Shown here: positions 1-44,865 of the stretch, in pieces | Layout of the letters: each line of letters opens with the position of its first letter | How positions within the stretch are numbered: the stretch's first letter is position 1 | Assembly (NCBI GenBank): GCA_030583825.1 | Contig: CP129477.1 | Span: forward strand, 446,308 to 510,307 | DNA: 64,000 bases | Direction: 5' to 3' | DNA from: Candidatus Dojkabacteria bacterium | GTDB taxonomy: Bacteria; Patescibacteriota; Dojkabacteria; GCA-002793355 | Translations under genes and position numbers: made by a program | Notes under the pieces: generated by a model | The model's database searches: none | Seen by the model: the letters and a program-made list of their open reading frames with translations, nothing else | What the model was told of the DNA's origin: nothing

Positions 1-996
1 TAAGTTCACTTCTTGTTTCAGCTTGAAGAAATCAATAATGCTTGAAAGTAGGTTCTTTTTGGGAGGAGTAGTTTCGTCGTCTTCGTCATCATCGCCAGGA
101 GTTGCCGATGGACGGAGTGTTACATTCACAACGGGAGTTGTAGATGTAGGCGTTGGTGCAGTTGTTTGGGTTATTGTCGGGGTAATTGCAGTATTTGCAA
201 ATAGAGGGAGGTCATCAATATCATTTGTGGCAATATCGAGAGACAAAGAAACAGGCGATTGCGATGATGGCACATCTTTTCGAGCAGCTTTTTCTCCTGT
301 GTCAGCAACAATATGCATTACTTCGGAAACAGTGACTGTTTGGGAGCCTGATAAGTCTTTTTTGTAAAATGACGCGGCATTATGAAACCATGTTAAATCA
401 TCTGTAACAACCGTAATGAGGGGGAATAGCGATGTCGTTCCATTGGCAGGGATAATGTAAACCAAAGAGTCGGTGGTACCACTGACAACTTCTCCAAATA
501 CACTAACAACATTTGGTGTTCCTTGTGCAGGTACAGCAGGAGTTTTAAACGAAAATGGCGTCTCTGCCGGAAAACGCGAAGCTCCCGACACTATTTTATA
601 GTAGTATGTTGTGTCAGGCTGCAAGTTGCGAAGAGTCACAATGTGAGTAAAGCGGCTGGAATTATCTGCTCTATCACGAGCATCAATAGCCACCGTATTT
701 ACATTACTTTGATCAGTTCCCCATACAAGGTAGCCTATTTGTTTTTCGCTTGGAGTAGTCCATGCGACAGTAAATGAGTCAAGAGCAACATTGCCAACAA
801 TAACCCGCTGCGGCTCTTCTAATGTGGCACGCGAACGCAAGTCTGAGTTAATTCTCAGCACAAAGTAGACAATCAATGGAGTCGCTATAACGATTATGAA
901 AAAAAGTACAACGATAACAATACTTTTTGTGGTTCTTTTCCATTCTGAAAGCCTTCTGACAAGATTTTGAATTGCGACACCCAATGGATTTGACAC
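1..996 (-). CDS. 3'-truncated (runs off window start) membrane-anchored protein with FN3 / purple-acid-phosphatase-N-like module; paralog of the N-terminus of 3694..7665
   Basis: Absent from ORF track (no stop in window). Manual minus-strand translation: ...RRLSEWKRTTKSIVIVVLFFIIVIATPLIVYFVL (TM) then PQRVIVGNVALDSFTVAWTT...DTTYYYKIV...PT-rich tail, open to position 1. Aligns with ENIRIANVGSNSFTISWTT...KYFFKIG of the 1323-aa protein. Start GTG at 994-996 or TTG at 982-984 (uncertain); in-frame stop upstream at 1027-1029. Confidence 0.5.
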   Translation of the reverse strand, partial: MSNPLGVAIQNLVRRLSEWKRTTKSIVIVVLFFIIVIATPLIVYFVLRINSDLRSRATLEEPQRVIVGNVALDSFTVAWTTPSEKQIGYLVWGTDQSNVNTVAIDARDRADNSSRFTHIVTLRNLQPDTTYYYKIVSGASRFPAETPFSFKTPAVPAQGTPNVVSVFGEVVSGTTDSLVYIIPANGTTSLFPLITVVTDDLTWFHNAASFYKKDLSGSQTVTVSEVMHIVADTGEKAARKDVPSSQSPVSLSLDIATNDIDDLPLFANTAITPTITQTTAPTPTSTTPVVNVTLRPSATPGDDDEDDETTPPKKNLLSSIIDFFKLKQEVNL

Positions 997-3693: not shown

Positions 3694-6600
3694 ATGAACT
3701 TGCCCAAAATTTTCAGCCAGCAACTAAACAAACTTTCACGTTTTAAAGGAGCTTTCCTTTTCGCGTTGCTGACTATTGTCATTCTTACTGTTATCTACTA
3801 CGCAGGATACTTTCTTGGGCCAAAACCCGAAAATATTCGTATTGCGAATGTGGGCAGCAATTCATTTACCATCTCCTGGACGACAAAAACTCCTGACGTT
3901 GGGACTATTTACTACTCTTCAAGCGAATCATTCCTTAATGTTCCAGCACCATTTTCATTGTTTTTCTCTCAAAAAGCATTTGACGACAGAGATGTCGCTC
4001 AGTACGAAATTGAAAAAGTCACGAATGAAAAGGTCTCACTTTCTCAAGGTAAATACTATTCTCACTCTGTAACAGTAAAAGGACTGGAGTTTTCAAGCAA
4101 ATACTTCTTTAAAATCGGAAATAACTTTTTTGCATACGGTGGAAAAAATTTGCTCACTCGAGATGCATTTCTTTCAGAGGCAGCAATTTCTGACGAGCTA
4201 TCGGTAGTAACATTGCCGTTCTCAAATAACCTTCGCGCACCAGACCCGTCATTCGGACTGGTACTGAATCAAGATGGATCCCCGGCGAAAGATAAAATCA
4301 TTACAGTTCATTTTTTGAACGGGCAACAGCTTGATGTTCCTTTGACCAACATGCTCTCTACTATCACAGGCGAAGAAGGCGATTATTACATTGATTTATC
4401 TAACGCGAAAAGCTTTCTTACCGGTGAAGATATATTTCTTGAAGAATCGGGCGAGATTTTACAAATAATCACAATTATTGACGAACGAGGTATTCGCAAC
4501 GAGCAGCAGATTCCAATTACATTAAATGCGCCTGTAGGAGATATTTATCTCTCTGACGAATATACTGACGGTGTGACTTCTCAATTATCAGTGGAACAGG
4601 TTTTTGCGAACTCTGGGCCAAAGGCAAGCTATTCACCAGAAACAGCTGACTATATTTCTGCAATGTTACCAGTTCAAACAGTATATGGCCAAGGAACAAA
4701 CGACTGTACTAATAAAAACTGTGGTGCTGGACAATGTTGGACAGGTGACAATCCAAACGACGGTGGATGGGCCTGCCGATGTAATAATGGAACAATGATT
4801 GGGCCAAATACATCACCAAAAACATGTTTAGATCAGGCTCCATTGCCTCCTCCACCTTCTGGTGGGCCAACTGGCAACGATTGTACAGGAAGAAGTTGTG
4901 GATCTTACGGAACATGTGATCCTTGGACAAATCCAAATGACGGTGGATGGGCTTGTCGTTGTAATAACGGAACCATTATGGGCCCGGACAAAAATATAAA
5001 AACATGTCCTGCACCTGCAGTTGCGCCAGCTCCAACACAAGCACCCGCAAGTTGTCAGTGTAGTGGGGGTACATTTTATGGCGGAGCTGCTATTCCTCCA
5101 TCATCAACAAGATGTGGCTCAACACAGCAATTCTGTGGAGCAGATCGAAACTCATATGCGTGTACAGCCCAAGGATGGGCGTATGTAGGAGCAGGCTGCG
5201 CAAACGCAATAGGAGCGCCTGCACCGACGCAAATTCCACCAGTAAAAACACCAGTACCAACGCCAACACCGACTTCTCAAATAAAAGTCTGTCCAACAGG
5301 AAGAGCTCTTACAGCTCAAGAAGTCCCTTGTACTTGCGCTACTGCAAATATGTCAATTAGTGCAGCAGGAACAGTGTGTCCTGCTATAACAGCAACACCT
5401 GTAGTTCAGACATCTTGCCCTGCAAACACTCCTATAAATAGTGGCCCTATACAATTTGTCAGTAAACCTCAAGCAAGCTGTGTTTCAGCAACCGTTAATG
5501 GAACATCTGTTTGGTGTTGCCCTGCAGCAGTAGTATCTACACCAGTACCAACAGTTATTAACGACTGTACCGGAAAAACATGTGGTAGCTACGGATCGTG
5601 TATTACTGGCCCAAATCCAAATGATGGCGGATGGGGATGTCAGTGTAACAATGGATCAACGATTCAACCGAACACTCATCCATATAAAATCTGTCCCGCA
5701 CCAAACACGAATCTCGGCTGCGATGGGAATGGTGGATGTCTAGGCGGAGCAAACGGAAATACCTGCGTATACAATGGCACAGTGGGAAGCATTCAATATG
5801 CAGGCCAAGCATGCTACCAATGTGTAAATGGCGCATGGGGACTGGCTTCTGACCAAAATAAATGCCGTGTTCCAAACCCAACAAGCTGTCAGCCAAATCA
5901 AACGCTTCATAGTGGTACAAAGCCAAGTGGTTATAGCGCATCTCGTTGTACGGGAGGAGATCAAGGCCATACCGGTATTTCGGAATCGGGACAACAATTT
6001 CAATATTGGTGCTGTAACCCACTTCCAATTGCATGTCCAAATAACTTGCCTAGAAATCTTGGCCCAATAGACAGAGTACCTAATCGTCCTGCTGCAAGCT
6101 GTGTAAGCACCCAATTAAGTGGAGGAACATCATGGTGCTGTCCACCAGTAGTTGCGACTCCGACTCCTACACCAACACCTATTGTGACAGTAGTCGCAAC
6201 GCCAACTCCGGCACCAACTGTTGCAACATGTCGTCACAATGTAGTTCTTGGAAATGCTGAATTACCATGTTTCTGTGATGGAACACCACAAGGACAAATT
6301 ACAACACGCTCTCAAGAAAAAGTCTGCCGTCATTTGCTCGGATCAGGATTTGCAGCATGCGGAAACCGCGATCCTTACGGCGTCCCTATGATGTGTCAGA
6401 TTCGCACCGGAATGAACGCAACGGCAACACATTACAGTGCAACATGGGATGGAGATGGTATTCCAGAAAGAAGACCTCTCAACTCAACATACTGCCCTCC
6501 TTTTGATTACACTGGAAGCAACCCTCTTAACAACGACATTGCTCATGGAGCATCAACATTTAGCTTAACAACAGAGAGATATCGTTGTAATAATGGCACA

Positions 6601-7665
6601 TGGGAACGTATAGAAGGAAAAAGTTTCGAGTTTTATGTTCCGGCAACTCCTGGTAGTGATCATCTTATATTGGCCCTGATCCCTACATCTCGATGTGATC
6701 CTTCTATTGAACAGCGAAGCTCAACAAGTACATCGCCTTCATGTAGAAGCGTTACCCCAAGTGCAGCCGAAGGCCCTGGCAATTATTATTGTTGTCCGAA
6801 AATAAATCCTGATGTTCCGGCACAACCTCAATCAAGCGCGCCAAGCCTTATTGCAACAGCATATGCACAGGCAGAACAAAGCAATAAAGTCGTTGTTATT
6901 AATGACCAAAATGTTGCATTCTTGCAAGATGGAGTCTATCGTTTTACTCTCAATGGCAAAACATACGTGGTTGAGGTTGCAGGAGCGACAAGTGACTCGC
7001 GTATTTACCTCGATGAGAATAAAAATAACCAGAAAGACGCGAATGAAAAATATATTGATGAGATTCAAAAATTATCTGAAATTTCGATAGAATCAGTGAC
7101 TCAAAAATATACATACACCTTTAAGCCTGGATTCAACTTTGTGGCATTTCCATTTGTTATGCAGGAAGATATGACAAAAGCCTCGCAATTGTTGGCACAT
7201 CTTAAAAAATCAGGATCATTCGTATTAGTATCTTCATATGATGGTGGATGGAAAACTATCACTTCAGCAGATGATTCTGCCAATCAAAGCAGTAACTTTG
7301 CCATTCAACCCGGTAGAGGATACGTCATACGTTTACTGGATTCAGAACCGGTATCGGTCAGTTTCACAGGTTTTCCTGTAAGAAACTCTGCAGCGCTCAG
7401 TCTTAGTCGAGGATGGAACCTTATTGGCGTATACAATTCAAATAAAACGTACTTGGCAACAACCCTGATCAGTGACATTATGAAAAAGAACATAGAAGCA
7501 GTAAATGTCACTAGATTTGACGATGCATTGTATTCCGGTATTCAAGTTGAAGGCACACGAAAGTATGGTTTTGACTTCCCTATCGAGCATGATAAAGGCT
7601 ACTTTATCAATATCAGAACGCTTCCTAATACGAACGATAGAGCTCTCAATTGGAGCGCGGAATAA
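3694..7665 (+). CDS. giant membrane-anchored cell-surface protein: N-terminal FN3-like module, EGF-like Cys-rich repeats, Pro/Thr linkers
   Basis: 1323-aa ORF, N-terminal TM. Three ~43-aa six-Cys repeats NDCTxxxCGxxxCxxxxNPNDGGWxCxCNNG...C (nt ~4693-4830, 4876-5010, 5563-5700). Second repeat type ASCVS...WCCP(A/P)VV followed by PT runs (nt ~5470-5560 and ~6090-6230). Confidence 0.7.
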   Translation: MNLPKIFSQQLNKLSRFKGAFLFALLTIVILTVIYYAGYFLGPKPENIRIANVGSNSFTISWTTKTPDVGTIYYSSSESFLNVPAPFSLFFSQKAFDDRDVAQYEIEKVTNEKVSLSQGKYYSHSVTVKGLEFSSKYFFKIGNNFFAYGGKNLLTRDAFLSEAAISDELSVVTLPFSNNLRAPDPSFGLVLNQDGSPAKDKIITVHFLNGQQLDVPLTNMLSTITGEEGDYYIDLSNAKSFLTGEDIFLEESGEILQIITIIDERGIRNEQQIPITLNAPVGDIYLSDEYTDGVTSQLSVEQVFANSGPKASYSPETADYISAMLPVQTVYGQGTNDCTNKNCGAGQCWTGDNPNDGGWACRCNNGTMIGPNTSPKTCLDQAPLPPPPSGGPTGNDCTGRSCGSYGTCDPWTNPNDGGWACRCNNGTIMGPDKNIKTCPAPAVAPAPTQAPASCQCSGGTFYGGAAIPPSSTRCGSTQQFCGADRNSYACTAQGWAYVGAGCANAIGAPAPTQIPPVKTPVPTPTPTSQIKVCPTGRALTAQEVPCTCATANMSISAAGTVCPAITATPVVQTSCPANTPINSGPIQFVSKPQASCVSATVNGTSVWCCPAAVVSTPVPTVINDCTGKTCGSYGSCITGPNPNDGGWGCQCNNGSTIQPNTHPYKICPAPNTNLGCDGNGGCLGGANGNTCVYNGTVGSIQYAGQACYQCVNGAWGLASDQNKCRVPNPTSCQPNQTLHSGTKPSGYSASRCTGGDQGHTGISESGQQFQYWCCNPLPIACPNNLPRNLGPIDRVPNRPAASCVSTQLSGGTSWCCPPVVATPTPTPTPIVTVVATPTPAPTVATCRHNVVLGNAELPCFCDGTPQGQITTRSQEKVCRHLLGSGFAACGNRDPYGVPMMCQIRTGMNATATHYSATWDGDGIPERRPLNSTYCPPFDYTGSNPLNNDIAHGASTFSLTTERYRCNNGTWERIEGKSFEFYVPATPGSDHLILALIPTSRCDPSIEQRSSTSTSPSCRSVTPSAAEGPGNYYCCPKINPDVPAQPQSSAPSLIATAYAQAEQSNKVVVINDQNVAFLQDGVYRFTLNGKTYVVEVAGATSDSRIYLDENKNNQKDANEKYIDEIQKLSEISIESVTQKYTYTFKPGFNFVAFPFVMQEDMTKASQLLAHLKKSGSFVLVSSYDGGWKTITSADDSANQSSNFAIQPGRGYVIRLLDSEPVSVSFTGFPVRNSAALSLSRGWNLIGVYNSNKTYLATTLISDIMKKNIEAVNVTRFDDALYSGIQVEGTRKYGFDFPIEHDKGYFINIRTLPNTNDRALNWSAE

Positions 7666-7754
7666 TTAGTAAGCTTTACATCAATAGGATTGAAAGAGAA
7701 AACTGTTGCTTGCTCAGTTACGTATTAATACGAATACGGATTATGAAAAAGGCG

Positions 7755-10088
7755 TTAAAATTCCTCTCCTGAGCCCTTTTCTCCAAAGACATCTTCAAGG
7801 CCTGAAACGAGTACTTCACGAGGCTTACTGCCACTTCCTGGAGCAACAATTCCCATCTCTGTCATTTGATCAATAAGTCGTGCTGCACGGTTAAATCCAA
7901 TCTTTAAATAGCGCTGTAAAGACGATGCTGAAGCTTTCCCTTGCTGAGTGACTAAAGCAACTGCTTGCCTGAATAATGGATCGTCCATGCCGTCAACGCT
8001 CATAACACCGCCTGTGCCTGCTCCACCAGACTCAGATGCCTGCATTTCTTCCATAAGCCTTGGATCGTACCAATTTTCTTCAGCATTAAGCAATTTAGCT
8101 CGCTGTTTAATAAAGTCGGTAATACGGTTGATTTCTTTTGTTGAGATAAACGCTGCTTGTACACGTCGTGTTTTGCCTGCATTCGGACTTTTTACGAGCA
8201 TATCACCCTTTCCAATAAGGCTTTCTGCTCCAACGTCATCAAGAATAACGCGAGAATCTACCCCACTGGTTACTCCAAGTGCAATACGCGCCGGAATATT
8301 GGCTTTAATTAAGCCTGTAATAACGTTTACGCTTGGACGTTGCGTTGCGAGAATCAGGTGAATTCCAGTTGCACGTGCAAGTTGTGCTAGACGAACAATC
8401 TTCTGCTCAACTTCTGCCTTTTTGGTCAAAATAAGGTCGGCCATTTCATCAATTGCGAGAATCAAATACGGCAGGCGATATGGTGATTGCTCGTTAAATT
8501 CGTCAAGATTTCGGACGCCTTTCTCTTTAAATAGCTTGTAACGCTGGGTCATTTCCCAAATCGCCCAATCAAGCGCACTGACTACTTTATCCATATCTGT
8601 AATAACGGGTGCAACAAGGTACGGAAGGTCGTTATACACCGACATTTCGACCATTTTTGGGTCAACGAGAATCATTTTTAGCTCATCCGGAGTAAACTTC
8701 ATCAAAAAGCCCATTAACAGATCATTGATTGTTACAGATTTACCGGTTCCAGTTGCTCCAGCCACCAATAAGTGAGGCATCTGTTGTAAGTCTTCGACTA
8801 CAATATCGCCACGAACATCCTTTCCAATGGCAAGCGGTAAACGGCGTAAGTCTTTAGACATTTCTTTTGTCTCAAGGACTTCCCGTAAGCGAACCATCTG
8901 CGATTGCTGGCGGGGCACTTCAATACCAACAAGCGATGTTCCACTAATGCTCGCAATACGAATAGATTCCGATGCCGATGCGAGTGCAAGGCCAATATCT
9001 TTGGAAAGGCCTGTAATTTTCGAGACTTTTGTTCCCGGAGCAAGATTTAGCGCATACTGAATAATTGTTGGGCCGACAAAAATCTTTGCCACACGGGCCT
9101 GAATCTTAAACGTTGCCAGTGTCTGCTCTATTTGCTTACCTCTTTCGTACACATCTTCTTCTTTAAACTTGTCAGGACTGGATGGTTCGAGCAAGTCTAA
9201 TGGAGGAAAGACCCAATCTCCGAACTTTGGCGTGTATCGTGTGCGAAATTCTGCGTCGAGATCAGAAGCATCATCTTCGTTGTCATCGCCTGCTCCATCA
9301 CCTGATTTACCTTGCAAATCTGGGCCATACGACACTTTGATTTTCCCTCCTTTGTTGTCATCGTCTACTCCAAGCGCAGGAAGGTCAATTTCTTCGACTT
9401 CTTTTTCCCGGCTTGATATATGAAGGATATTTTCTTCATCGAGCTCATCGCTTTCTTTCTTTTGCCCTGAAATGATTTCTGCAGCATTTTCATCTTTTTT
9501 CTGATGTGCTACCAATTCTGGCTTCGGCATCTTTTCTCCTAATGCTGTAAACATACTAGACAAAATTCTATAGAAAAATGTAAACACCGTGTTCATAATA
9601 TCACCGAATTGTGCAAGCGAGATCCCACTTAAAATAGAGACAGCAACAATAAGTACCGAGAGTAAAATACCCAATTCTGCAGGTCTTCCTACAATATTAA
9701 ACAGCTGCTGGTGGAGAAATAACCCAATAATTCCGCCACCTTCACCTTGAGAGGCACGCAAAGATTGAACGTCCACCGGAATCCAGAAAGTCAGCATTGG
9801 CAGCAAAGTGAGTAATAGCAATGCAAGTCCGGAGATAAAACGCTCAGTTGTAAAAAATAGCTTTACACCAATAAGGCGAAATCCCATGCATACGAAAATT
9901 GCTCCTAACACATATGTTGTTTGACCAAAATTGCGCAAGATAAGTTGAGGAATCGTTCCTGTAAGAGAGTTGTTAACAAAAAGAGAAACACCAATAGCAA
10001 GAAAAATAAAACCCATAAATACCTGAGTTTCCCGGCTTTTTATTGTTATTTCTCCGCTTTTTTTAGGGGGGCGTCCTCGTTTTGCCAT
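7755..10088 (-). CDS. ftsK: DNA translocase FtsK/SpoIIIE
   Basis: N-terminal TMs, Walker A VAGATGTGKS, Walker B LILAIDEMADL, ATQRPSVNVITG motif, C-terminal winged-helix gamma domain (QAVALVTQQGKASASSLQRYLKIGFNRAARLIDQMTEMGIV). Confidence 0.9.
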   Translation of the reverse strand: MAKRGRPPKKSGEITIKSRETQVFMGFIFLAIGVSLFVNNSLTGTIPQLILRNFGQTTYVLGAIFVCMGFRLIGVKLFFTTERFISGLALLLLTLLPMLTFWIPVDVQSLRASQGEGGGIIGLFLHQQLFNIVGRPAELGILLSVLIVAVSILSGISLAQFGDIMNTVFTFFYRILSSMFTALGEKMPKPELVAHQKKDENAAEIISGQKKESDELDEENILHISSREKEVEEIDLPALGVDDDNKGGKIKVSYGPDLQGKSGDGAGDDNEDDASDLDAEFRTRYTPKFGDWVFPPLDLLEPSSPDKFKEEDVYERGKQIEQTLATFKIQARVAKIFVGPTIIQYALNLAPGTKVSKITGLSKDIGLALASASESIRIASISGTSLVGIEVPRQQSQMVRLREVLETKEMSKDLRRLPLAIGKDVRGDIVVEDLQQMPHLLVAGATGTGKSVTINDLLMGFLMKFTPDELKMILVDPKMVEMSVYNDLPYLVAPVITDMDKVVSALDWAIWEMTQRYKLFKEKGVRNLDEFNEQSPYRLPYLILAIDEMADLILTKKAEVEQKIVRLAQLARATGIHLILATQRPSVNVITGLIKANIPARIALGVTSGVDSRVILDDVGAESLIGKGDMLVKSPNAGKTRRVQAAFISTKEINRITDFIKQRAKLLNAEENWYDPRLMEEMQASESGGAGTGGVMSVDGMDDPLFRQAVALVTQQGKASASSLQRYLKIGFNRAARLIDQMTEMGIVAPGSGSKPREVLVSGLEDVFGEKGSGEEF

Positions 10089-14170: not shown

Positions 14171-15612
14171 TATGTCAATACGCCAACAAGGTTAATTCCA
14201 AATAATACGAGGTAGCAACAAATGGCAAAGACTAATATTGTTTTTATGAGTATCCCCGGACGATACGCCTGCGGAATATGTTTAGTATTTGTAATGAGAA
14301 GTAAGATCGCCAGAATTGCCATTGCAAATGCATTAATTACTGCACCAACGATGATTAGCCAGAGAGGCTCAGAAAATCCAATGAGAAAGAGAATAATGCC
14401 AAAACTCATTTGTACAAGCACTGCTTTTGTATAGACATCTCCCAGTGGAACATGACGGAACTTACGAGAAATCCTTGCTGCAAGCGCTGTAAATCTTCCC
14501 ATAATATCAAGCGCTCCAAGTTGTACCGACATTAATGCAAATGCACCGATAATAACAAAGAGAACTCCAAAAATTGCTCCAGTACTGGCCGTGATAACCT
14601 GCGACTCAAAAATAATGAACTCAAAAGATTCCGGAATATCTGCCATTCCTTGTAACAATACGCGAGAGAGATAAGAAAGAATAAAGATCATCAAAAAGCC
14701 AAGAAGCCAGAAGACAATCGCGCTTTCCCGCAATTGAAAACCACGGGCTTTTTTAAAGTTAGCAATACTCTCTGGGTCATCGCTAATAACAATATTCTCT
14801 TTAATAGAGTCAACATGTTTTGGTGCTGGAGTATGCAATGACAACTTTTCTGCATACTTTGCGTTACCCGTTTCTTCTTCAATGACATAAAAACTCTGAC
14901 CAAGCAAAAAGTTTCCTCCAGTCCCTGCATATGCAAATGCTCCTAAGAAAACAGCAAAATCAAGCCCTTGTGGGAGTCCAAAATATCCATTTCCAATACC
15001 AACAAGACCTCTTGCAGCTTCTGCGATGCTATCAAGAGAAAAATACCTAATAAAAAGAAAGACGAGAAGCACAAAGCTAAATGGAACAACTATTTTCTGA
15101 ATTAACTCCACTTTCGAGTAGACATTTTTGCCTGCCAACAACAGAACCGCACAAAAAACAAGGATTCCAATAGCAACAAAACGTGAATATTCCGCAGGAA
15201 TACCAAAAAGATGAGAGAGTAATGCTGCAGCTGTTGCAGCAAATCCTGGCCAGCCAAATCCAATGAGTGTCGAGAAAATAAGCCAAAACGGTAAATACTT
15301 ATGGATACGGGCAAATCCATGCACAATGCTTTCCCCTTTCACCATTGTGTAGCGAGCAATCTCTGAAATAAGAACAAACTGTAATGTAATACCAAGAAGA
15401 GCTCCCCACAAGATTCCAAATCCATATTGAGAAGTCATGTACGGCCAAAGGACATACTCACCACTACCAATACCAAGTCCCAGTGTCACAAGGCTTGGGC
15501 CGATTGTTTGCCAAAAGCTTTTTGTAAAAGGTGGAAACTTCCTTACTTCTGCTGTCATATTGAATAAGAGTAGCATATTTTTCACAGTTTTGAAGAACCT
15601 TCTTTGTTCCAC
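14170..15612 (-). CDS. NRAMP-related divalent-cation transporter-like membrane protein
   Basis: 480 aa, ~11 TMs. N-terminal GPSLVTLGLGIGSGEYVLWPYMTSQYGFGILWGALLGITLQ resembles the MntH GP..a.iDPGN...G..FGY.LLW block but lacks DPGN. Confidence 0.45.
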   Translation of the reverse strand: MEQRRFFKTVKNMLLLFNMTAEVRKFPPFTKSFWQTIGPSLVTLGLGIGSGEYVLWPYMTSQYGFGILWGALLGITLQFVLISEIARYTMVKGESIVHGFARIHKYLPFWLIFSTLIGFGWPGFAATAAALLSHLFGIPAEYSRFVAIGILVFCAVLLLAGKNVYSKVELIQKIVVPFSFVLLVFLFIRYFSLDSIAEAARGLVGIGNGYFGLPQGLDFAVFLGAFAYAGTGGNFLLGQSFYVIEEETGNAKYAEKLSLHTPAPKHVDSIKENIVISDDPESIANFKKARGFQLRESAIVFWLLGFLMIFILSYLSRVLLQGMADIPESFEFIIFESQVITASTGAIFGVLFVIIGAFALMSVQLGALDIMGRFTALAARISRKFRHVPLGDVYTKAVLVQMSFGIILFLIGFSEPLWLIIVGAVINAFAMAILAILLLITNTKHIPQAYRPGILIKTILVFAICCYLVLFGINLVGVLT

Positions 15613-15813
15613 TTTGTTTCCACGGATTTAATTGATTTGTGGATAAATAGATATAGAGCAAAACGTTTCATTGTTGTTCCACGTTTTCTATAAATATGTT
15701 GATAACTCGCCCTAACATTCTACACGCTTGTTTCACTTGGGACTTTATTAGTAAAAAAAATACTACAAATAAAAAGGCGCTTAAATGCCAATTGTCTTAG
15801 TAGAAGAGAGAAT

Positions 15814-17154
15814 TTACGCTGTGAGAAGCGTTTTCAGAGCAAAAAGAAGGTCTTTTGGAACTCGCTTAGCATACGTTTTATTTGTAAATGCTCGGTATAG
15901 CCATACCAAACGCATTCTTTCTACAATTTTAGGCTCTTTTTTCTGATATCCGGAAATAAGGTCAAATGTACGTCCAAGACCAAATCCAAGACCGAATTGC
16001 ACACCTTCTTTTTTAAGACGATGAATAAACTTTTCCTGAGTTGGAGCAGCGAGACATGCAAAAATAAGATCAGGATTCTTCTTGGCAATATCCGCTTTTA
16101 CCGCAGAGTACACTTCGTCATTTTTCATAAATCCCACAGGTGGAGAGCTTATTCCAACAATGTTTTGGGCCATATGTGGATATGCACTCACAAAATGATC
16201 TCTCACTTTCTGCGCTGTTTGACCAAATCCACCAACAAAATAAATCGTAAAAGGCAACGAATCCTGGCCAATTTTGTTCATAAGCGAGACAAATACATCT
16301 ACACCGCTGACTTGCTCGATCGTTTGGTATCCAAGCGATTGTTTTGCGTATTTCACAAGAGGAGGATAGCCGTCTGCTGTCTGCAAAAATGCCTGTGCGT
16401 AGACTTCCTGAAACTCTTTATCGTCTTCTTCGATAAGCATGCGAAAATGATCCAAATTTGGAGTTACAACTGCCATTGGTTGAATAGTTTTACCCGATCG
16501 TTGCTCCTGAAATCGCTTTTCCAGTCGGCTAATGATCATTTGTATTGCTTCGGCTCGTGTTCCCGGAAAAACATTAACATATTTCTGCCGAAATAATGGA
16601 TACTTATGCTTCCAGGAGAACATAAAACTTTCTTCTATCTCCTTCCATTCTTTTATAAATTGCTGTGCTGAGTCGTTTTCAACAAGAATTTCCGGCATTG
16701 CCGAGGTCAATCGCAATCTTCCCGTTCCATTTGTGGAAGTTTTGTATCCTTCTACAATATCGAAGATCTCGCTGTTTTTATCGTGCTTAAATGTAATAAG
16801 TGGCCGGCCAAGCGTGCTAACAAATGATTGCTCTGTATCAGAATGAGGAAGGCGAATCGTAACCGTATCTTGGAATAAATCTTGAGTAAAGTACTGTACG
16901 CTTTTTGCAAGAATAACGACTTCAAGAGGAGAAATCCACATATGTGAAAGGACTGCCTGCTGTTTTTTTGTAATTGTTCCAAATCTAAAAATATCACCCA
17001 CAGAAGGGAGCATTACAGCAATGTCAGACTGTTGTTTTACAAATTCATTTACTGCTTGTGATTGGAGTGCTTCAGGAAAAATTCCCAAAAAGGATTCCCC
17101 CGCACGCTCGATAAGAAATGCGGTAGGAGACTGATCAGCTGCTGTTACTTTCAT
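15814..17154 (-). CDS. WecB/TagA/CpsF-family glycosyltransferase domain fused to an unknown ~210-aa N-terminal domain
   Basis: C-terminal half (YFVGGFGQTAQKVRDHF...NPDLIFACLAAPTQEKFI...GLGFGLGRTFDLISGYQKKEPKIVERMRLVWLYRAF) matches the WecG/TagA core; N-terminal domain unassigned. Confidence 0.55.
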   Translation of the reverse strand: MKVTAADQSPTAFLIERAGESFLGIFPEALQSQAVNEFVKQQSDIAVMLPSVGDIFRFGTITKKQQAVLSHMWISPLEVVILAKSVQYFTQDLFQDTVTIRLPHSDTEQSFVSTLGRPLITFKHDKNSEIFDIVEGYKTSTNGTGRLRLTSAMPEILVENDSAQQFIKEWKEIEESFMFSWKHKYPLFRQKYVNVFPGTRAEAIQMIISRLEKRFQEQRSGKTIQPMAVVTPNLDHFRMLIEEDDKEFQEVYAQAFLQTADGYPPLVKYAKQSLGYQTIEQVSGVDVFVSLMNKIGQDSLPFTIYFVGGFGQTAQKVRDHFVSAYPHMAQNIVGISSPPVGFMKNDEVYSAVKADIAKKNPDLIFACLAAPTQEKFIHRLKKEGVQFGLGFGLGRTFDLISGYQKKEPKIVERMRLVWLYRAFTNKTYAKRVPKDLLFALKTLLTA

Positions 17155-17165
17155 GCTTGATTATA

Positions 17166-19007
17166 CTATCTTTGCTCAAGTTTCCGTAGTCTCGAGTAAT
17201 ATTTCTGTAATTCTTTGCCAAGGATGTCCGTTTCCTCAGCATTTTCATCTTCGTCTATCGCTCCCAGTTTATCGCGAAGTTCCTGAATCCTTAGTGTGAT
17301 CACTCCTTTTTTCAGCCTGCTTGTGGCATTTTGAAAATCTTTCACAACTTCGTCCGTAATTTCAAGGCTCATTGTTGCCTCAAGAGTACCGAGTTTTTGG
17401 ATAGTTGCTGCAATTTCAGTATCTTCTTGTATATTCTGTATATAGGCAGAATATGTATTTCCAATTGCTGTGTAAAATTCTGTTGCAATGCTATTCCAGT
17501 TTTTCTGCGTTCCATCGGGAAGAGTCGAAGATTTTAAAAAATCTTTATACGCAAGTGCAAACGAATACAGGGACAGATATAACTTTTTTTGAACATCTGA
17601 CAGGAAGTATTTTTCACCTCCTGGTTTTTTAGTGATAAATAACGCAAATAAGGGAAATTGCAGCATCAAACTTAATAAATATTCTGCTGTTGTCACTGCA
17701 CCTTGTCTCTGCTGAATTCCTTGCTGCAACTGCTCTGGCACTGTCCTTCGCTGCACAGAAGAGAGGAGTACTGACTCTTCAATATGAAGTCTTTGCGAAA
17801 ATTCTTTAATCAGCAGAGCTTTTTTCAGATCCGGCGCATGAGAGATGACTTCCAACAACTGTTGTAATTTCTTTTCAAAAAGAGAAAAATCCTTTTTCAT
17901 AACGGTTTCTAGTCCTTTGAGTGCTTCGTCGAAGAACTCCTTGGGTTTTTCAGCAGTTTGCTGCCAAAGTTCAGGGTTTTCCTTTACCAACTCATCAATA
18001 TCCTTAAATTGCGATGGAATAGAGAGAATATACGGTGTCATACCGATTGAAAGTGCCATTTCCACGCCACGGAGTAAAGACTTTTTGCCTGCAGTATCGT
18101 TATCAAATGCAAAGGCAATATTTGGAGTGATTCTTTTAACCAAAAGTAATTGAGTATCAGTTAGTCCCGTTCCCAATGGTGCAATAATGTTTTCTACACC
18201 TGCCTGTGCCGAGCTAATCACGTCGAGTTGACCTTCACACATAATTGCCATATCTTTTTGGCCAATTTGCTGCTTTGCCTGCGAAAATCCAAATAAAATA
18301 AGGCGTTTTTTAAATATTAGTGTCTCCGGAGAGTTCAAATACTTCGGCCGTTCATCTTCCGCGCGAATGACTCGACCGCTAAACCCAACCACTCTGCCTG
18401 AATTATCACTAATTCCGAACATAAGTCTATCTGTAAACTTGTCACGCTGTTTTTCGTTGAGTAATCCTGCTGCATACATTTCTTTTTGAGAATATCCTCG
18501 CTTTGTAAGAAACTGAATAAGGTCGTTTCCAGATCGTGGAGCGTACCCAATATGAAATTTTTCAATACTTTCTGCAGTAAGTCCTCTTTTTTCGAGTGCA
18601 TATTTCTTTGCATATTCCCCAACTTTGTGAGACATCAGCAAATGCTGAAAAAATTTATCTACAAGCTCATGCATTTTTCGCTGCTTCTGAATCTCTTTTG
18701 TTTGTGCGTCGTCACGTGACCGAGAAAGCGTTACTCCCGCTTGTTGTGCAAGTTTTTCTAATGCTTCCGGAAACTCAATATGCTCATATTCCTGCACAAA
18801 AGTAAAAATATCGCCGGTCTTTCCACAGCCAAAACACTTATAAATACCTAGTTGAGGATTTACATGAAAAGATGGAGTTCTTTCATTGTGAAACGGACAA
18901 TTTCCCATCCACGTTTTGCCCGCACGACGGAGCTCTACGTACTGAGAAACAACTGTGACTATGTCCAATCGTGATTTTATTTCGATAATATCGTCTTTTC
19001 CTGCCAT
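17166..19007 (-). CDS. dnaG: DNA primase
   Basis: CHC2 zinc finger (CPFHNERTPSFHVNPQLGIYKCFGCG), TOPRIM (MCEGQLDVIS...DND), 613 aa. Confidence 0.9.
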   Translation of the reverse strand: MAGKDDIIEIKSRLDIVTVVSQYVELRRAGKTWMGNCPFHNERTPSFHVNPQLGIYKCFGCGKTGDIFTFVQEYEHIEFPEALEKLAQQAGVTLSRSRDDAQTKEIQKQRKMHELVDKFFQHLLMSHKVGEYAKKYALEKRGLTAESIEKFHIGYAPRSGNDLIQFLTKRGYSQKEMYAAGLLNEKQRDKFTDRLMFGISDNSGRVVGFSGRVIRAEDERPKYLNSPETLIFKKRLILFGFSQAKQQIGQKDMAIMCEGQLDVISSAQAGVENIIAPLGTGLTDTQLLLVKRITPNIAFAFDNDTAGKKSLLRGVEMALSIGMTPYILSIPSQFKDIDELVKENPELWQQTAEKPKEFFDEALKGLETVMKKDFSLFEKKLQQLLEVISHAPDLKKALLIKEFSQRLHIEESVLLSSVQRRTVPEQLQQGIQQRQGAVTTAEYLLSLMLQFPLFALFITKKPGGEKYFLSDVQKKLYLSLYSFALAYKDFLKSSTLPDGTQKNWNSIATEFYTAIGNTYSAYIQNIQEDTEIAATIQKLGTLEATMSLEITDEVVKDFQNATSRLKKGVITLRIQELRDKLGAIDEDENAEETDILGKELQKYYSRLRKLEQR

Positions 19008-22799: not shown

Positions 22800-23150
22800 C
22801 TAGGTCGTTGGCAACGTGCCTGGCAAGTCTACATCGAAGACTCCAAGAATGAACCCCGCAATCGCGAATGCAGCAAGGACAACGATAAGTCCAATAATTG
22901 CGTTAATTATAAGTTGTTGTGCTGATTGAAGTTCACGAGGATCACCGCGAGACATGATAAATTTGTATCCACCGTAAATAATCATTCCTACGCCGACAAC
23001 GATAATAAGAGAAATTGCTGCAGTAAAAAGTCCTCGAACTGCTGCATCGCCACCACTAGGGCTAAGAAAACCTGCAGTTGGGCCAACTGTTCCAATAACA
23101 TCTACTGTATAACCAAAGGCTCGTGTAAGGATACTTCCCATCATGTTCAA
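22800..23150 (-). CDS. TrbC/VirB2-like pilin-family protein (tandem copy 3)
   Basis: Two hydrophobic helices flanking IYGGYKFIMSRGDPRELQSAQQLIINAIIGLIVV; same module as 23157, 23484, 30137, 30647 and 20598. Confidence 0.6.
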   Translation of the reverse strand: MNMMGSILTRAFGYTVDVIGTVGPTAGFLSPSGGDAAVRGLFTAAISLIIVVGVGMIIYGGYKFIMSRGDPRELQSAQQLIINAIIGLIVVLAAFAIAGFILGVFDVDLPGTLPTT

Positions 23151-23156
23151 CTCTTC

Positions 23157-23462
23157 TTATGTTATGGCATTTATAATAATCGCACGAATAACAAACGCAA
23201 ACAGTACTATTGCAATACCAATAACGGCATTAACGATAATACCTCGAGCTTGTTCTACTTTCTTTGGATCGCCCTGGCTCATCATGTAAGTATATCCGCC
23301 ATAAACAATCAATCCAACAAAAAGAATCGAAAGCAAAGGAAGAACAACGCCAAGAGCGTTGGTTACAAGATCACCGATTGTTCCTGGTGCTCCAGGAGCT
23401 GGAGTAATTTGGCTCAAATCTATAGTTGCGCCTGCGTTTAAACTTGGAAGACGATTTGTCAT
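23157..23462 (-). CDS. TrbC/VirB2-like pilin-family protein (tandem copy 2)
   Basis: LIVYGGYTYMMSQGDPKKVEQARGIIVNAVIGIAIVLFAF; 6-nt gap to next copy. Confidence 0.6.
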   Translation of the reverse strand: MTNRLPSLNAGATIDLSQITPAPGAPGTIGDLVTNALGVVLPLLSILFVGLIVYGGYTYMMSQGDPKKVEQARGIIVNAVIGIAIVLFAFVIRAIIINAIT

Positions 23463-23483: not shown

Positions 23484-23909
23484 CTAGCTAATGCCAAGTG
23501 TGCTGAAAACCATGGAAATAATTGCTGTTGCGGTTAAAATCAGTCCAAAACCGAGTAAAGCATTCATTATTTGTTCTTTACCATCTTGAATCTTTTTTGA
23601 TTCTCCGCCACTCATCATAACTTTGTATGCACCAATAACAACAAGTACTAATGCAACGAGGGCACCAACAACGCCAGCTGCGGCTGCAATTTGTGTAACA
23701 AATCCAACACCACCGGTACTTGTATCAAAACAAATTCCAAAGTCGAATTCAATACCGCTACATCCACCGGCGGAAACTGTATATTGAGGAAGAGTCCGGC
23801 CTGTAATAGTTGAAACTAAGCCCGGAAGTGCCTGAGAAACCACTCTCCCCACTGTAGTAAATGATTCTGGCATACTTTGTATTATACCATTTGCTATCCC
23901 TATTTTCAT
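23484..23909 (-). CDS. TrbC/VirB2-like pilin-family protein (tandem copy 1, longer N-region)
   Basis: VIGAYKVMMSGGESKKIQDGKEQIMNALLGFGLILTATAI; 2-nt gap to upstream methyltransferase. Confidence 0.55.
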   Translation of the reverse strand: MKIGIANGIIQSMPESFTTVGRVVSQALPGLVSTITGRTLPQYTVSAGGCSGIEFDFGICFDTSTGGVGFVTQIAAAAGVVGALVALVLVVIGAYKVMMSGGESKKIQDGKEQIMNALLGFGLILTATAIISMVFSTLGIS

Positions 23910-41524: not shown

Positions 41525-43984
41525 ATGATATACTTTGAGCAGATGACTGCCTCTTATTTAGTCGCACAACTGGGAACAAACGTATCACGATCGGCTGGGA
41601 CTTCAGGCAATTCCGACATATTTGTCACAATCATTTTTGTTATTATTTTCGTTTTAGCACTGCTTATTGCTGGTTTATTAACCTATTTATTGGCAAAAAA
41701 CGTACAAAACAAAGATCGTGAGGAAAAATCCTTACACTACACCATTTTTATTGTCAGAATGGCTCATGGAAATGAATCGCAGATTAAAGCAGCAGAGCAA
41801 ATGTTCAGCAGTTTGTATGGAATTTACGAAAAGAAGGGCATTATTGATCAAATGACGAAGGCCGACGAGGGGCTTTCTTTTGAAATTATTGCGTATCCAG
41901 AGCATATTGGCTTTTACGTATATGTCCCAGAAAGATTTGCACAACTTGCAGAAAAACAAATTCTTGGAGCATATCAAGATGCCGAAGTATTGCAGGTTCC
42001 AGAGCCAAACTTTTTTAAGGAGGGAGCGTCAGTTGTGAGTGGAACATTCGAAATTACCGACGAGCAATATCTTCCTGTAAAAACATATGCAGACTATGAA
42101 GAAAAAGCCGATCCTCTGACTTCAATCACAGGAGCATTCGCAAATATGATTGACGGTGAAGGTGGAGCATTGCAAGTGTTAATAACTCCGGCAGGTTCAG
42201 ACTGGTCATCGAGTGGGCAGAAATATATTCAAAAGATTAATGAGCATAATAACGATCCTGAAAAAAAGAATAAAATCACTGTTCCACAGGAGAAAATCCA
42301 GGCAATTCAGAAAAAGACAGCAAAAGTAGGATTCAAAGTAAATATTCGTGCCGTAATGTGTGCAGATACTCAAGACATGGCAATGGCACGATTAAATACA
42401 CTTGCAGGGTCAATTTCACAGCTTGCAAATCCGGGTCTAAACGGGTTCAAGTTCAAAAAGGTCGAAGGAAACGGGCTTCGTGAGTTTATGAACGACTTTG
42501 TCTATCGCCGAGTGTCTCCAACCAAAACGGTTTTGAATGTTGAAGAGCTTGCGACGATTTATCACTTTCCAAACCAGAATACGCAAACACCGAATATTGA
42601 ATGGCTTATTGCACGAAAAGCTGCTCCTCCTCCAAACTTACCGAAAGCTGGGTTGTGGGTTGGTGCATCTGCATACCGAGGCATTAATCGTGATGTATTT
42701 ATGGGTGATGACGACCGTCGCCGTCACACATACATTATTGGACAAACCGGTACAGGTAAATCATGGTTCTTAGCAAATATGATTTTGCAAGACATTTATA
42801 TGGGCAAAGGACTTGCATTGCTTGATCCTCACGGTGCAACAGTTGAGCAAGTTCTTGAGCGCATTCCTCCTGAAAGAGCCGAAGATGTCATTTATTTTAA
42901 CCCTGCAGATGTACAACGTCCGTTTGGAATGAACTATATAGAATTCCGCAACGAATACGAAAAGCACGAAATTGTGAACGGATTTCTTGGCTTGATGAAA
43001 AAGATGTTCGATCCGCACGATCAGGGTATTGTAGGCCCGCGATTTGAGCGTGCTGTACGAAATGCCATGCTTACGGTTATGGCAGAGCAGGGAAATACAT
43101 TGGTTGAAGTGTTGCGGTGTATCGCAGACGAGCAATTTGCTTTGTCATTCATGGATAAAATTGATGACGACGAAGTCCGAAACTATTGGCTGAAAGAAAT
43201 GGCCTCGACCGAGAAAAAAGATAAATCTGAAATTCTTGGATGGCTTACGTCAAAGTTTGACCGTTTTGTTACAAATATTTTAATTCGCCACATTATTGGG
43301 CAGAGTGAGTCATCGTTTAACTTCCGCCAGGTGATGGATAATAAGAAAATTTTGCTCGTAAACTTGTCGAAAGGTTTGATCGGCGAAGAAAACGCTCAAT
43401 TCTTGGGCTTGCTAGTTATTCCAAAGATTTTACGCGCAGCGCTCAGCCGCGAAGATATTCATGAATCCGAGCGTCAAGACTTTTACTTGTACGTTGACGA
43501 GTTTCAAAACTTTGCGACAGAAGACTTTGCGCAGATTTTGTCTGAAGCACGTAAATACCGCCTGAATCTTATAGTCGCGAACCAGTATATTCAGCAGATG
43601 TCTGAAAAGATCCGCAATGCGGTCTTTGGTAACGTTGGTACATTGGTCAGTTTCCGCGTTGGCGCAGGTGATGCAGAGTATCTTTCCAAAGAATTCGCCC
43701 CGGTATTTGAGGATCAGGACTTGATTAAGCTCGAAAACGCAAATGTGTACATAAAAACATTGATTAATGGTGTTGCAATGCCGCCATTCTCGATGAGCAC
43801 ATTTTATAACATTAATGAGCGCTATCCAAAGCACGAAAGAGTAGGCGATTTGATTAAGCAGTTGTCACGAACAAGATATGGCCGTGATGAGCAATATGTA
43901 AAAGAAGCTATCAAAATGAGGGCAGCCCGACCGGAAGTAGCAAAGCCTGCCCAACCGGCAATGAAACCTCCGCTTGTTTTCTAA
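41525..43984 (+). CDS. VirD4/TrwB/TraD-like type IV coupling protein (membrane-anchored FtsK-HerA-superfamily ATPase)
   Basis: N-terminal TM; HTYIIGQTGTGKSWFLANMILQDIYMGKGLALLDPHGATVEQ...VIYFNPADVQRPFGMNYIEFRNEYE parallels TrwB GATGTGKS...IVDPNGD...ILNPYDQRT...FFNEIRNDYD; Walker B YLYVDEFQNF; RKYRLNLIVANQYIQQ (RK...Q sensor). SD GGGGGAAAT before ATG. Confidence 0.6.
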   Translation: MIYFEQMTASYLVAQLGTNVSRSAGTSGNSDIFVTIIFVIIFVLALLIAGLLTYLLAKNVQNKDREEKSLHYTIFIVRMAHGNESQIKAAEQMFSSLYGIYEKKGIIDQMTKADEGLSFEIIAYPEHIGFYVYVPERFAQLAEKQILGAYQDAEVLQVPEPNFFKEGASVVSGTFEITDEQYLPVKTYADYEEKADPLTSITGAFANMIDGEGGALQVLITPAGSDWSSSGQKYIQKINEHNNDPEKKNKITVPQEKIQAIQKKTAKVGFKVNIRAVMCADTQDMAMARLNTLAGSISQLANPGLNGFKFKKVEGNGLREFMNDFVYRRVSPTKTVLNVEELATIYHFPNQNTQTPNIEWLIARKAAPPPNLPKAGLWVGASAYRGINRDVFMGDDDRRRHTYIIGQTGTGKSWFLANMILQDIYMGKGLALLDPHGATVEQVLERIPPERAEDVIYFNPADVQRPFGMNYIEFRNEYEKHEIVNGFLGLMKKMFDPHDQGIVGPRFERAVRNAMLTVMAEQGNTLVEVLRCIADEQFALSFMDKIDDDEVRNYWLKEMASTEKKDKSEILGWLTSKFDRFVTNILIRHIIGQSESSFNFRQVMDNKKILLVNLSKGLIGEENAQFLGLLVIPKILRAALSREDIHESERQDFYLYVDEFQNFATEDFAQILSEARKYRLNLIVANQYIQQMSEKIRNAVFGNVGTLVSFRVGAGDAEYLSKEFAPVFEDQDLIKLENANVYIKTLINGVAMPPFSMSTFYNINERYPKHERVGDLIKQLSRTRYGRDEQYVKEAIKMRAARPEVAKPAQPAMKPPLVF

Positions 43985-44754: not shown

Positions 44755-44826
44755 GGGCGTATAGCTCAGTGGTAGAGCACTGTTCTTATAAAGCAGCGGT
44801 CCATGGTTCGATCCCATGTACGCCCA
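44755..44826 (+). tRNA. tRNA with anticodon UAU (nominally Ile, decodes AUA)
   Basis: Acceptor GGGCGTA/TACGCCC, D-arm GCTC-AGTGGTA-GAGC, anticodon arm CTGTT-CTTATAA-AGCAG (TAT at 44787-44789), T-arm CATGG-TTCGATC-CCATG, discriminator A. Confidence 0.8.
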
Positions 44827-44865
44827 CTATCTTGTGTTTTTATCGAATTTAGGACTATAATTGTC

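Follow-up and report, generated by a model that had tools for sequence, protein, structure and literature searches.

The locus described here, a 64,000-nucleotide stretch of the Candidatus Dojkabacteria contig CP129477.1 (positions 446,308 to 510,307; the window), raises the question of what a bacterium of the candidate phyla radiation (CPR; Patescibacteria) does with a 1323-residue protein whose middle is built from small cysteine modules. Attachment to other cells is the presumed way of life of CPR bacteria; few of their attachment proteins are known outside Saccharibacteria, and Dojkabacteria are not known to have a cultured representative. A first-pass annotation, made from the DNA letters and translated open reading frames (ORFs), had described the product of this gene (window positions 3694-7665) as an extracellular, disulfide-bonded, adhesin-like protein with repeats resembling epidermal growth factor (EGF) domains. 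As judged by comparison with its relatives, the cysteine-rich part is the variable stalk of a protein family whose N-terminal base and C-terminal domain are both conserved, and the protein is probably a stalked adhesin forming a fibril on the surface of the Dojkabacteria cell.

Conserved ends and a variable cysteine-rich stalk

The ORF is as first described, running from an ATG through 1323 codons with no internal stop, and its product matches NCBI WKZ30569.1 exactly, a record on a 1,090,595-bp contig annotated as 'MAG: fibronectin type III domain-containing protein [Candidatus Dojkabacteria bacterium]' (MAG, metagenome-assembled genome). A contig from another sample, representing a sister strain, is 97 % identical to the window at the DNA level. 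Within the ORF, the two strains differ at 52 nucleotides, of which 48 are synonymous and only 4 non-synonymous, and the length is unchanged; the gene is therefore not a pseudogene. A 1465-residue orthologue (P0002) shares 54 % overall identity with the target and retains all 28 cysteines within the alignment of residues 562-866. Thus, the target is a real, intact gene under selection.

One genome per GTDB species was scanned for relatives, which yielded three (L003, L004 and L005; two from Dojkabacteria and one from a Microgenomates MAG). P0002, P0016 and P0031 came from protein searches; P0031 bears the annotation Candidatus Nomurabacteria. The family is spread over Dojkabacteria, Microgenomates, Nomurabacteria and metagenomes. 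The transmembrane helix, the fibronectin type III (fn3) base and the C-terminal domain recur, with 23-58 % identity, in all seven full-length members compared (these six and the target). Their central regions range from 451 to 938 residues and from 0.7 to 8.0 % cysteine, with module types that differ between members and a cysteine count that is even in seven of seven. The rule shown by these alignments is one of conserved base and conserved tip, between which the stalk has been rebuilt by gain, loss, duplication and swapping of modules.

The base starts with a hydrophobic helix that accounts for every 19-residue Kyte-Doolittle window above 1.6 in the protein (aa 14-43). It follows a stretch rich in lysine and arginine (K5, K13, R16 and K18) and is read as an uncleaved signal-anchor, its orientation and retention both being predictions. 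Next comes an fn3-type domain, conserved across all seven members, which matches Pfam PF16656 (Pur_ac_phosph_N; E 3e-9, 37.8 bits vs a gathering cut-off of 30) as well as Pfam fn3 (E 1.9e-4), and which carries the family motif KAFDDRD. A second N-terminal segment (aa ~175-290) has no Pfam match; it is 51 % identical to that of P0002 and alignable in all relatives. No LPXTG sortase signal was found at the C-terminus, which reads ...RTLPNTNDRALNWSAE; the sequence 'LPNTN' at aa 1310-1314 was rejected as a sortase motif for want of a hydrophobic tail. A Zn_ribbon_NUD match at aa 412-424 (E 0.0056) was judged to be an artefact of the cysteine pattern.

The stalk, of about 700 residues, contains all of the cysteines of the protein, which lie within aa 338-1034 and were counted as 58 (4.4 % overall and 8.1 % in aa 331-1010), fewer than the initial estimate of about 70. 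Other credible ORFs of the window contain 0-1.9 % cysteine; the cysteine-rich ORFs 22926-23441 (+) and 15997-16596 (+) were dismissed as spurious, being antisense to real genes. Twelve blocks, delimited by hand from cysteine positions, hold 6, 6, 6, 4, 4, 6, 6, 4, 4, 4, 4 and 4 cysteines in order, such that every module has an even number, and linkers rich in proline, threonine and alanine separate many of them. By type, these are three EGF-like modules, four [WY]CC modules, two C...CxC...C modules (aa 533-562 and 846-878, whose repeat relationship was judged by eye) and three others, namely a CxCxGG...GW six-cysteine module, a GCDGNGGC... six-cysteine module, and one further four-cysteine segment. 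All cysteines of the GCDGNGGC... module (aa 676-724) are conserved in P0002. The first-pass annotation had noted a (P/R)xASCVSxxxxGTSxWCCP repeat, present twice and each time followed by a Pro/Thr linker. Both copies exist (aa 592-613 and 799-819), as parts of a four-cysteine [WY]CC module present in four copies; a Pro/Thr linker of 25 residues follows the second, and only the seven residues STPVPTV follow the first. Neither the [WY]CC nor the CxCxGG...GW module has a Pfam or NCBIfam entry or a PDB sequence match, and no NCBIfam family, curated bacterial cysteine-repeat families such as the Myxococcus cysteine-rich repeat included, matches the protein at E up to 10.

The CxCxGG...GW module (aa 452-503) was the most frequently matched part of the protein in an exhaustive HMMER search with aa 331-1050 against 1.84 billion representative proteins. 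It recurs, with the consensus CxCxGG..G..I.P..TYCG..VCGxD...YxC...GW...G..C, in secreted proteins (P0017-P0030 and P0032), where it stands in tandem in up to about five or six copies and where the sequences look high-GC bacterial. P0017 contains a glycoside-hydrolase domain and P0022 an M23 peptidase with SH3; by eye, P0023 resembles P0017 and P0021 resembles P0022. The module may be an undescribed glycan- or wall-binding module.

The C-terminal domain is free of cysteine and 53 % identical to that of P0002, and a search with it recovered 13 further, mostly fragmentary homologues. Its AlphaFold model, built from a 14-sequence alignment, is confident and mostly beta (predicted local distance difference test score, pLDDT, 83.9; predicted template-modelling score, pTM, 0.77). 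Searches of Pfam, NCBIfam and PDB sequences, and Foldseek comparisons with the PDB and with the viral structures of BFVD, gave no relative. The residues invariant among the 14 sequences are mostly glycine, proline and aromatic, with a single aspartate as the only polar one, which suggests a role in structure or binding more than in catalysis. Going by its motif, the acidic Asp/Asn-Gly loop DENKNNQKDANE, for which the family consensus is YxDENxNGxxDE, may bind Ca.

Resemblance of the six-cysteine units to EGF domains

Three six-cysteine units of about 43 residues had been reported, and all three were found within a few bases of the original coordinates. They share 60-65 % mutual identity and cysteine spacings of 4, 4-5, 12, 1 and 14-15, compared with 4-7, 4-5, 8-10, 1 and 8-10 in canonical EGF controls, such that the C3-C4 and C5-C6 loops exceed those of the canonical EGFs tested. 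A profile of the unit (A4) was built from nine EGF-like units of five proteins, all nine of which have the order C-x(n)-C-x(n)-C-x(n)-C-x-C-x(n)-C; the last loop is 23 residues long in one of them.

Several comparisons point specifically to EGF. The sole Pfam family to match all three units is PF06247 (Pvs28 EGF), at E 7.8e-5, 3.9e-4 and 0.38. In a PDB search with the unit profile, the best match was Pfs28 (8e1z; E 0.0057), with cysteines 1 to 5 in register, followed by matches that include Pfs25/P25, the low-density lipoprotein receptor and fibrillin EGFs; 11 of the 14 matches are EGF-containing proteins. Alignment of A4 by hhalign with six canonical EGF sequences, entered by hand, gave 81.5 % (E 1.1e-5), again with C1-C5 in register, whereas two other cysteine-module profiles of the target (A6 and A7) gave 2.2 % and 0.2 %; the signal is therefore not a general artefact of cysteine richness. 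The likeness to the Pfs28/P25-P28 EGFs extends to the C4-x-C5 doublet among six cysteines, an aromatic residue two positions before C4 (GGW-x-C-x-C), a glycine after C2, N-x-G-T after C5, and tandem modules in an extracellular setting, the last as predicted for the target. The units differ from the EGF superfamily in having no aromatic after the glycine, a C5-C6 loop of 14-15 rather than 8-10 residues, and a 12-residue C3-C4 loop with an invariant DGG (NPNDGGW in most copies), as well as in their CPR bacterial host and their occurrence, at the sensitivity used, in five protein clusters only.

Other results weigh against membership of the EGF family. The PF06247 scores (23.1, 20.9 and 11.3 bits) lie below the gathering cut-off of 26, and no match of the units to EGF, hEGF, EGF_CA, EGF_2 or TNFR_c6 was obtained in Pfam at E up to 10. 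Likewise, the PROSITE-type patterns EGF_1 (C-x-C-x5-G-x2-C) and EGF_2 (C-x-C-x2-[GP]-[FYW]-x4,8-C), written out by hand, matched none of the nine units; three of four canonical controls matched both, and the fourth EGF_2 only. An AlphaFold model of unit 3 (pLDDT 84.7), compared with the PDB by Foldseek, produced nothing better than E 2.3 and no EGF domain, although Foldseek is probably low-powered on a 48-residue, mostly irregular domain. Laminin-EGF matched another module instead (aa 675-726), and only weakly (E 0.03, under the cut-off).

The units may instead be an unrelated disulfide knot whose spacing happens to mimic EGF, or resemble a pilin-like C-terminal disulfide loop, a reading whose chances are put below even. 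The sub-threshold Pfam scores, the unmatched signatures, the long C3-C4 and C5-C6 loops, and the Foldseek outcome all fit this reading. So does the weak profile match (E 0.012, ~40 residues) to PDB entries 8v7p and 6bbk, both named 'fimbrial protein', in which the type IV pilin C-terminal disulfide loop shares DG-x-W-x-C and a terminal CP with the units. On the other side stand the predominance of EGF-containing proteins among the PDB matches, the register with Pfs28 and the hhalign contrast with the other cysteine modules. The pilin resemblance was judged to be due to chance because only two of six cysteines align; moreover, the target lacks the pilin N-terminal helix. In sum, the units resemble EGF specifically, and membership in the EGF superfamily falls short of demonstrated. 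They probably represent a divergent EGF subfamily; an EGF-type fold is given somewhat better than even chances, and these units would be the stalk modules likeliest to take an EGF-type disulfide arrangement, with unusually long C3-C4 and C5-C6 loops.

The EGF-like unit is rare. The exhaustive HMMER search recovered it from only four other proteins, P0002, P0016, P0031 and P0033. A scan of Joint Genome Institute (JGI) metagenomes with the pattern [GW][PDT][NK][PA][NY]DGG[WY] returned 82 stretches, none of which was confirmed as a unit, and a word-indexed search with A4 gave 141 candidates, none scoring, although this search likewise missed the known members and is uninformative. Literature searches on Patescibacteria and Dojkabacteria turned up nothing specific about their surface proteins or about EGF-like domains in them. 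P0033 (L006 6001-7404, ENA ERZ25074695) contains one unit in an otherwise different 467-residue protein with a hydrophobic N-terminus, several other cysteine-rich stretches and a C-terminal hydrophobic segment, encoded next to genes without Pfam matches; the unit is therefore mobile between architectures.

A probable surface adhesin and its alternatives

The extracellular, disulfide-bonded and adhesin-like nature originally proposed for the protein is supported by inference, because a hydrophobic helix follows a K/R stretch, the fn3 match lies above its cut-off, Pro/Thr linkers are present and cysteine numbers are even. In a stalked adhesin, the uncleaved N-terminal helix would anchor the protein in the cytoplasmic membrane, with the remainder outside; the fn3 base would span the wall zone; and small, independently folding modules joined by stiff Pro/Thr linkers would hold the C-terminal domain away from the cell. 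The stalk, for which the module layout and cysteine counts are observed, would be disulfide-bonded, rigid and protease-resistant. The C-terminal domain at its distal end would bind a ligand, for which a host cell or a surface is the most plausible location.

Several points count against this proposal. No DsbA, DsbB or VKOR was seen among the scanned ORFs of the window. A sludge digester is the source of one related MAG or more, and in such a habitat, presumably anoxic, oxidative folding cannot be taken for granted. L005 has a nearly Cys-free stalk, and disulfides are therefore not essential to the function of the family. L004 has extra hydrophobic helices in mid-protein, with which its topology would change. 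Finally, no functionally characterised relative of the C-terminal domain was found, and its putative role as a ligand-binding tip draws on position and conservation.

The main rival is a role in the envelope, as an S-layer-like or wall-spanning scaffold with a self-assembling or wall-binding C-terminal domain and a cross-linking cysteine part. This would suit a gene flanked by murJ and ftsK, which serve the envelope and division, with a paralogous protein of transmembrane helix and fn3 domain encoded 2.7 kb away on the opposite strand, and with further fn3 proteins, one bearing a sortase-like signal, encoded after the homologue in L003. It would also suit the sharing of the aa 452-503 module with M23 peptidase/SH3 or glycoside-hydrolase proteins, which presumably act on cell-wall or other glycans, in keeping with glycan or wall binding. 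However, whole-protein family scans gave no SLH, S-layer or LysM-type match, the murJ/ftsK neighbourhood is not conserved in relatives, and the extreme variability of the middle region suits an exposed, diversifying stalk better than a lattice former. An envelope role is considered unlikely.

Far less probable is a secreted enzyme, such as a phosphoesterase, with catalysis assigned to a divergent module at the C-terminus. A Pur_ac_phosph_N domain, matched here above its cut-off, normally precedes a metallophosphatase catalytic domain. At E up to 10, no part of the protein matches Metallophos or another catalytic family of Pfam or NCBIfam, the C-terminal domain has a single invariant polar residue in 14 sequences, and it has no PDB relative; on these grounds, the phosphatase reading was rejected. 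Next to no chance is given to the repeats being template and variable copies of a diversity-generating retroelement, or to the ORF being a decaying pseudogene, as no supporting point was found, the intact ORF and its mostly synonymous strain differences exclude the latter, and DNA copies that differ at 32-43 % of sites over all base classes speak against the former.

The divergence of the copies had been put at about 15 % in the first-pass annotation; the measured values are 32-35 % for pairs of EGF-like units and 43 % for the WCCP pair. The accompanying view that these are ancient protein repeats nevertheless holds, because the mismatches involve every kind of base pair without favouring adenine, and none of the window ORFs scanned against Pfam matched a reverse transcriptase. 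Overall, the earlier observation was largely correct apart from two numerical errors, and its interpretation, reasonable but incomplete, is partly supported.

Beyond a stalked adhesin as such, a more specific and rather doubtful proposal would combine three elements: the units would have the true EGF fold (disulfides 1-3, 2-4 and 5-6) and form a CPR-restricted subfamily nearest to the apicomplexan P25/P28 proteins, the protein would be the main host-attachment fibril of Dojkabacteria, and its tip would be a previously undescribed Ca-dependent binding domain. If true, this would provide a concrete, testable candidate for how Dojkabacteria hold on to their host, together with a bacterial branch to be placed in the evolution of the EGF superfamily. 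In any case, the family is a definable candidate surface fibril in Dojkabacteria, Microgenomates and Nomurabacteria, and its C-terminal domain, EGF-like unit, [WY]CC unit and CxCxGG...GW unit are unnamed domain families without a Pfam or NCBIfam entry. A question for CPR physiology is that the gene would require a cell with a genome of ~1.1 Mb to form about 29 extracytoplasmic disulfides in one protein.

Features of the locus and relation to known surface proteins

The window is chromosomal, with about 40 % G+C and the housekeeping genes murJ, ftsK, trxB-like, ksgA, dnaG, dnaN, metG and smpB (features in Table 1). Divergence from the sister strain is greatest in the 500-bp bin 7500-7999 (57 mismatches vs 4-29 in other bins), which takes in the 3' ends of both genes, target and ftsK, together with their intergenic spacer. 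The target is flanked by murJ and ftsK, its homologue in L003 by tgt and queA, and that in L004 by an ABC transporter; no conserved gene neighbourhood was found among the compared loci, and because the neighbours vary from locus to locus, there is no operon partner.

In L003 (Candidatus Dojkabacteria JAGPFQ010000001.1), the gene directly downstream of the homologue (14555-16552) encodes a 665-residue protein with two fn3/Pur_ac_phosph_N domains and a sortase-like C-terminal signal ('PKTG', a hydrophobic stretch and KKKGKG), and the next gene (16591-17505) encodes another fn3 protein; together, they look like a small cluster of surface protein genes. The L004 homologue (3870-7976; Candidatus Dojkabacteria JBHAMS010000030.1) has its extra helices at aa ~366-447, between base and variable region, suggesting either a different topology or a fusion of two genes.

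Within the window, the protein encoded at the left edge is distantly paralogous to the base of the target (24 % identity in 99 aa), and its gene is divergently oriented, 2.7 kb upstream. Four T4SS_pilin genes and, 18 kb from them, a VirD4/TraG-like coupling ATPase gene are, by their domain matches, chromosomal components of a type IV secretion-like system. The window also encodes a tRNA-Ile with the anticodon TAT; most bacteria read AUA with a lysidine-modified CAT tRNA, and a tRNA-Ile with a UAU anticodon is uncommon. Three other very large proteins are all poor in cysteine (0.3-0.6 %).

Table 1. Coordinates of the gene, of the parts of its product and of other features of the window
Feature	Residues (aa)	Nucleotides	Strand	Basis or remark
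Whole gene		3694..7665	+	1323 codons, ATG start, 0 internal stops
Single N-terminal transmembrane helix	~19-42	3748..3819	+	Kyte-Doolittle
fn3-type domain (Pur_ac_phosph_N)	45-143	3826..4122	+	Pfam PF16656
Second conserved N-terminal segment	~175-290	4216..4563	+	Relatives' alignment
EGF-like six-Cys unit 1	336-378	4699..4827	+	Pvs28 EGF E 3.9e-4
EGF-like six-Cys unit 2	395-438	4876..5007	+	Pvs28 EGF E 0.38
Six-Cys module CxCxGG...CG...CGxD...YxC...GW...C, single copy	452-503	5047..5202	+	No Pfam/PDB relative
Pro/Thr linker before CxC copy 1	508-527		+	Sequence
Four-Cys C...CxC...C module, copy 1	533-562	5290..5379	+	Cys positions
[WY]CC four-Cys module 1 (WCCP)	575-610	5416..5523	+	No PDB relative
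EGF-like six-Cys unit 3	623-667	5560..5694	+	Pvs28 EGF E 7.8e-5; AlphaFold pLDDT 84.7
Six-Cys module GCDGNGGC...CYQCVNGAWG...C	676-724	5719..5865	+	Weak Laminin-EGF
[WY]CC modules 2 and 3	732-775, 781-817	5887..6144	+	Cys positions
Long Pro/Thr linker	820-844	6151..6225	+	Sequence
CxC module copy 2, then further four-Cys segment	846-878, 889-965	6229..6588	+	
[WY]CC module 4 (YCCP), with the protein's last Cys	1001-1035	6694..6798	+	
Conserved Cys-free C-terminal domain (~270 aa)	1053-1323	6850..7662	+	Read as distal 'head'
Acidic Asp/Asn-Gly loop	1107-1118	7012-7047	+	Family consensus
Protein running off the left edge		1-996	-	N-terminal transmembrane helix and Pur_ac_phosph_N/fn3 (E 5.7e-13)
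T4SS_pilin genes, three small and one of 474 aa		20598-22022, 22800-23150, 23157-23462, 23484-23909	-	PF18895
Very large protein, 962 aa		34381-37269	+	No Pfam match
VirD4/TraG-like coupling ATPase		41525-43984	+	
tRNA-Ile, anticodon TAT		44755-44827	+	ARAGORN
Very large protein, 1172 aa		56284-59802	+	Hydrophobic N-terminus resembling an export signal; CarboxypepD_reg domains
Very large protein, 1083 aa		59817-63068	-	No Pfam match

Among known systems, the stalk-and-tip adhesins of Gram-positive bacteria combine a repetitive or Pro/Thr-rich stalk with a ligand-binding end domain. The target is similar in having a wall-proximal anchor, a long, modular, Pro/Thr-linked spacer and a conserved globular domain at the far end. 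In contrast, its anchor is an N-terminal transmembrane helix rather than a C-terminal LPXTG signal, its stalk is presumed to be held by disulfides rather than by Ig-like repeats or isopeptide bonds, and its tip domain has no known relative.

Closer in lineage, large and very cysteine-rich extracellular proteins with a proposed role in attachment have been described for the CPR in Peribacteria, among them a cluster of 14 such genes (Anantharaman et al. 2016, PMC4736985). The target agrees with the descriptive criteria of this class, which is not a homology family and was compared by description rather than by sequence: it is a CPR protein of more than 1000 residues, with about 7-8 % cysteine in its rich region, an export or anchor signal, no functional annotation, a proposed attachment role, and variability between strains or lineages. 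It differs in its Dojkabacteria lineage, in being a single gene instead of one of a 14-gene cluster, and in its defined architecture, with an fn3 base, a Cys-free C-terminal domain and cysteines only in the variable stalk. The general phenomenon has been published before, and nothing here calls for an unusual mechanism; the present case is useful rather than surprising: the target is a lineage-restricted version of a known kind of CPR surface protein, composed in part of undescribed cysteine modules.

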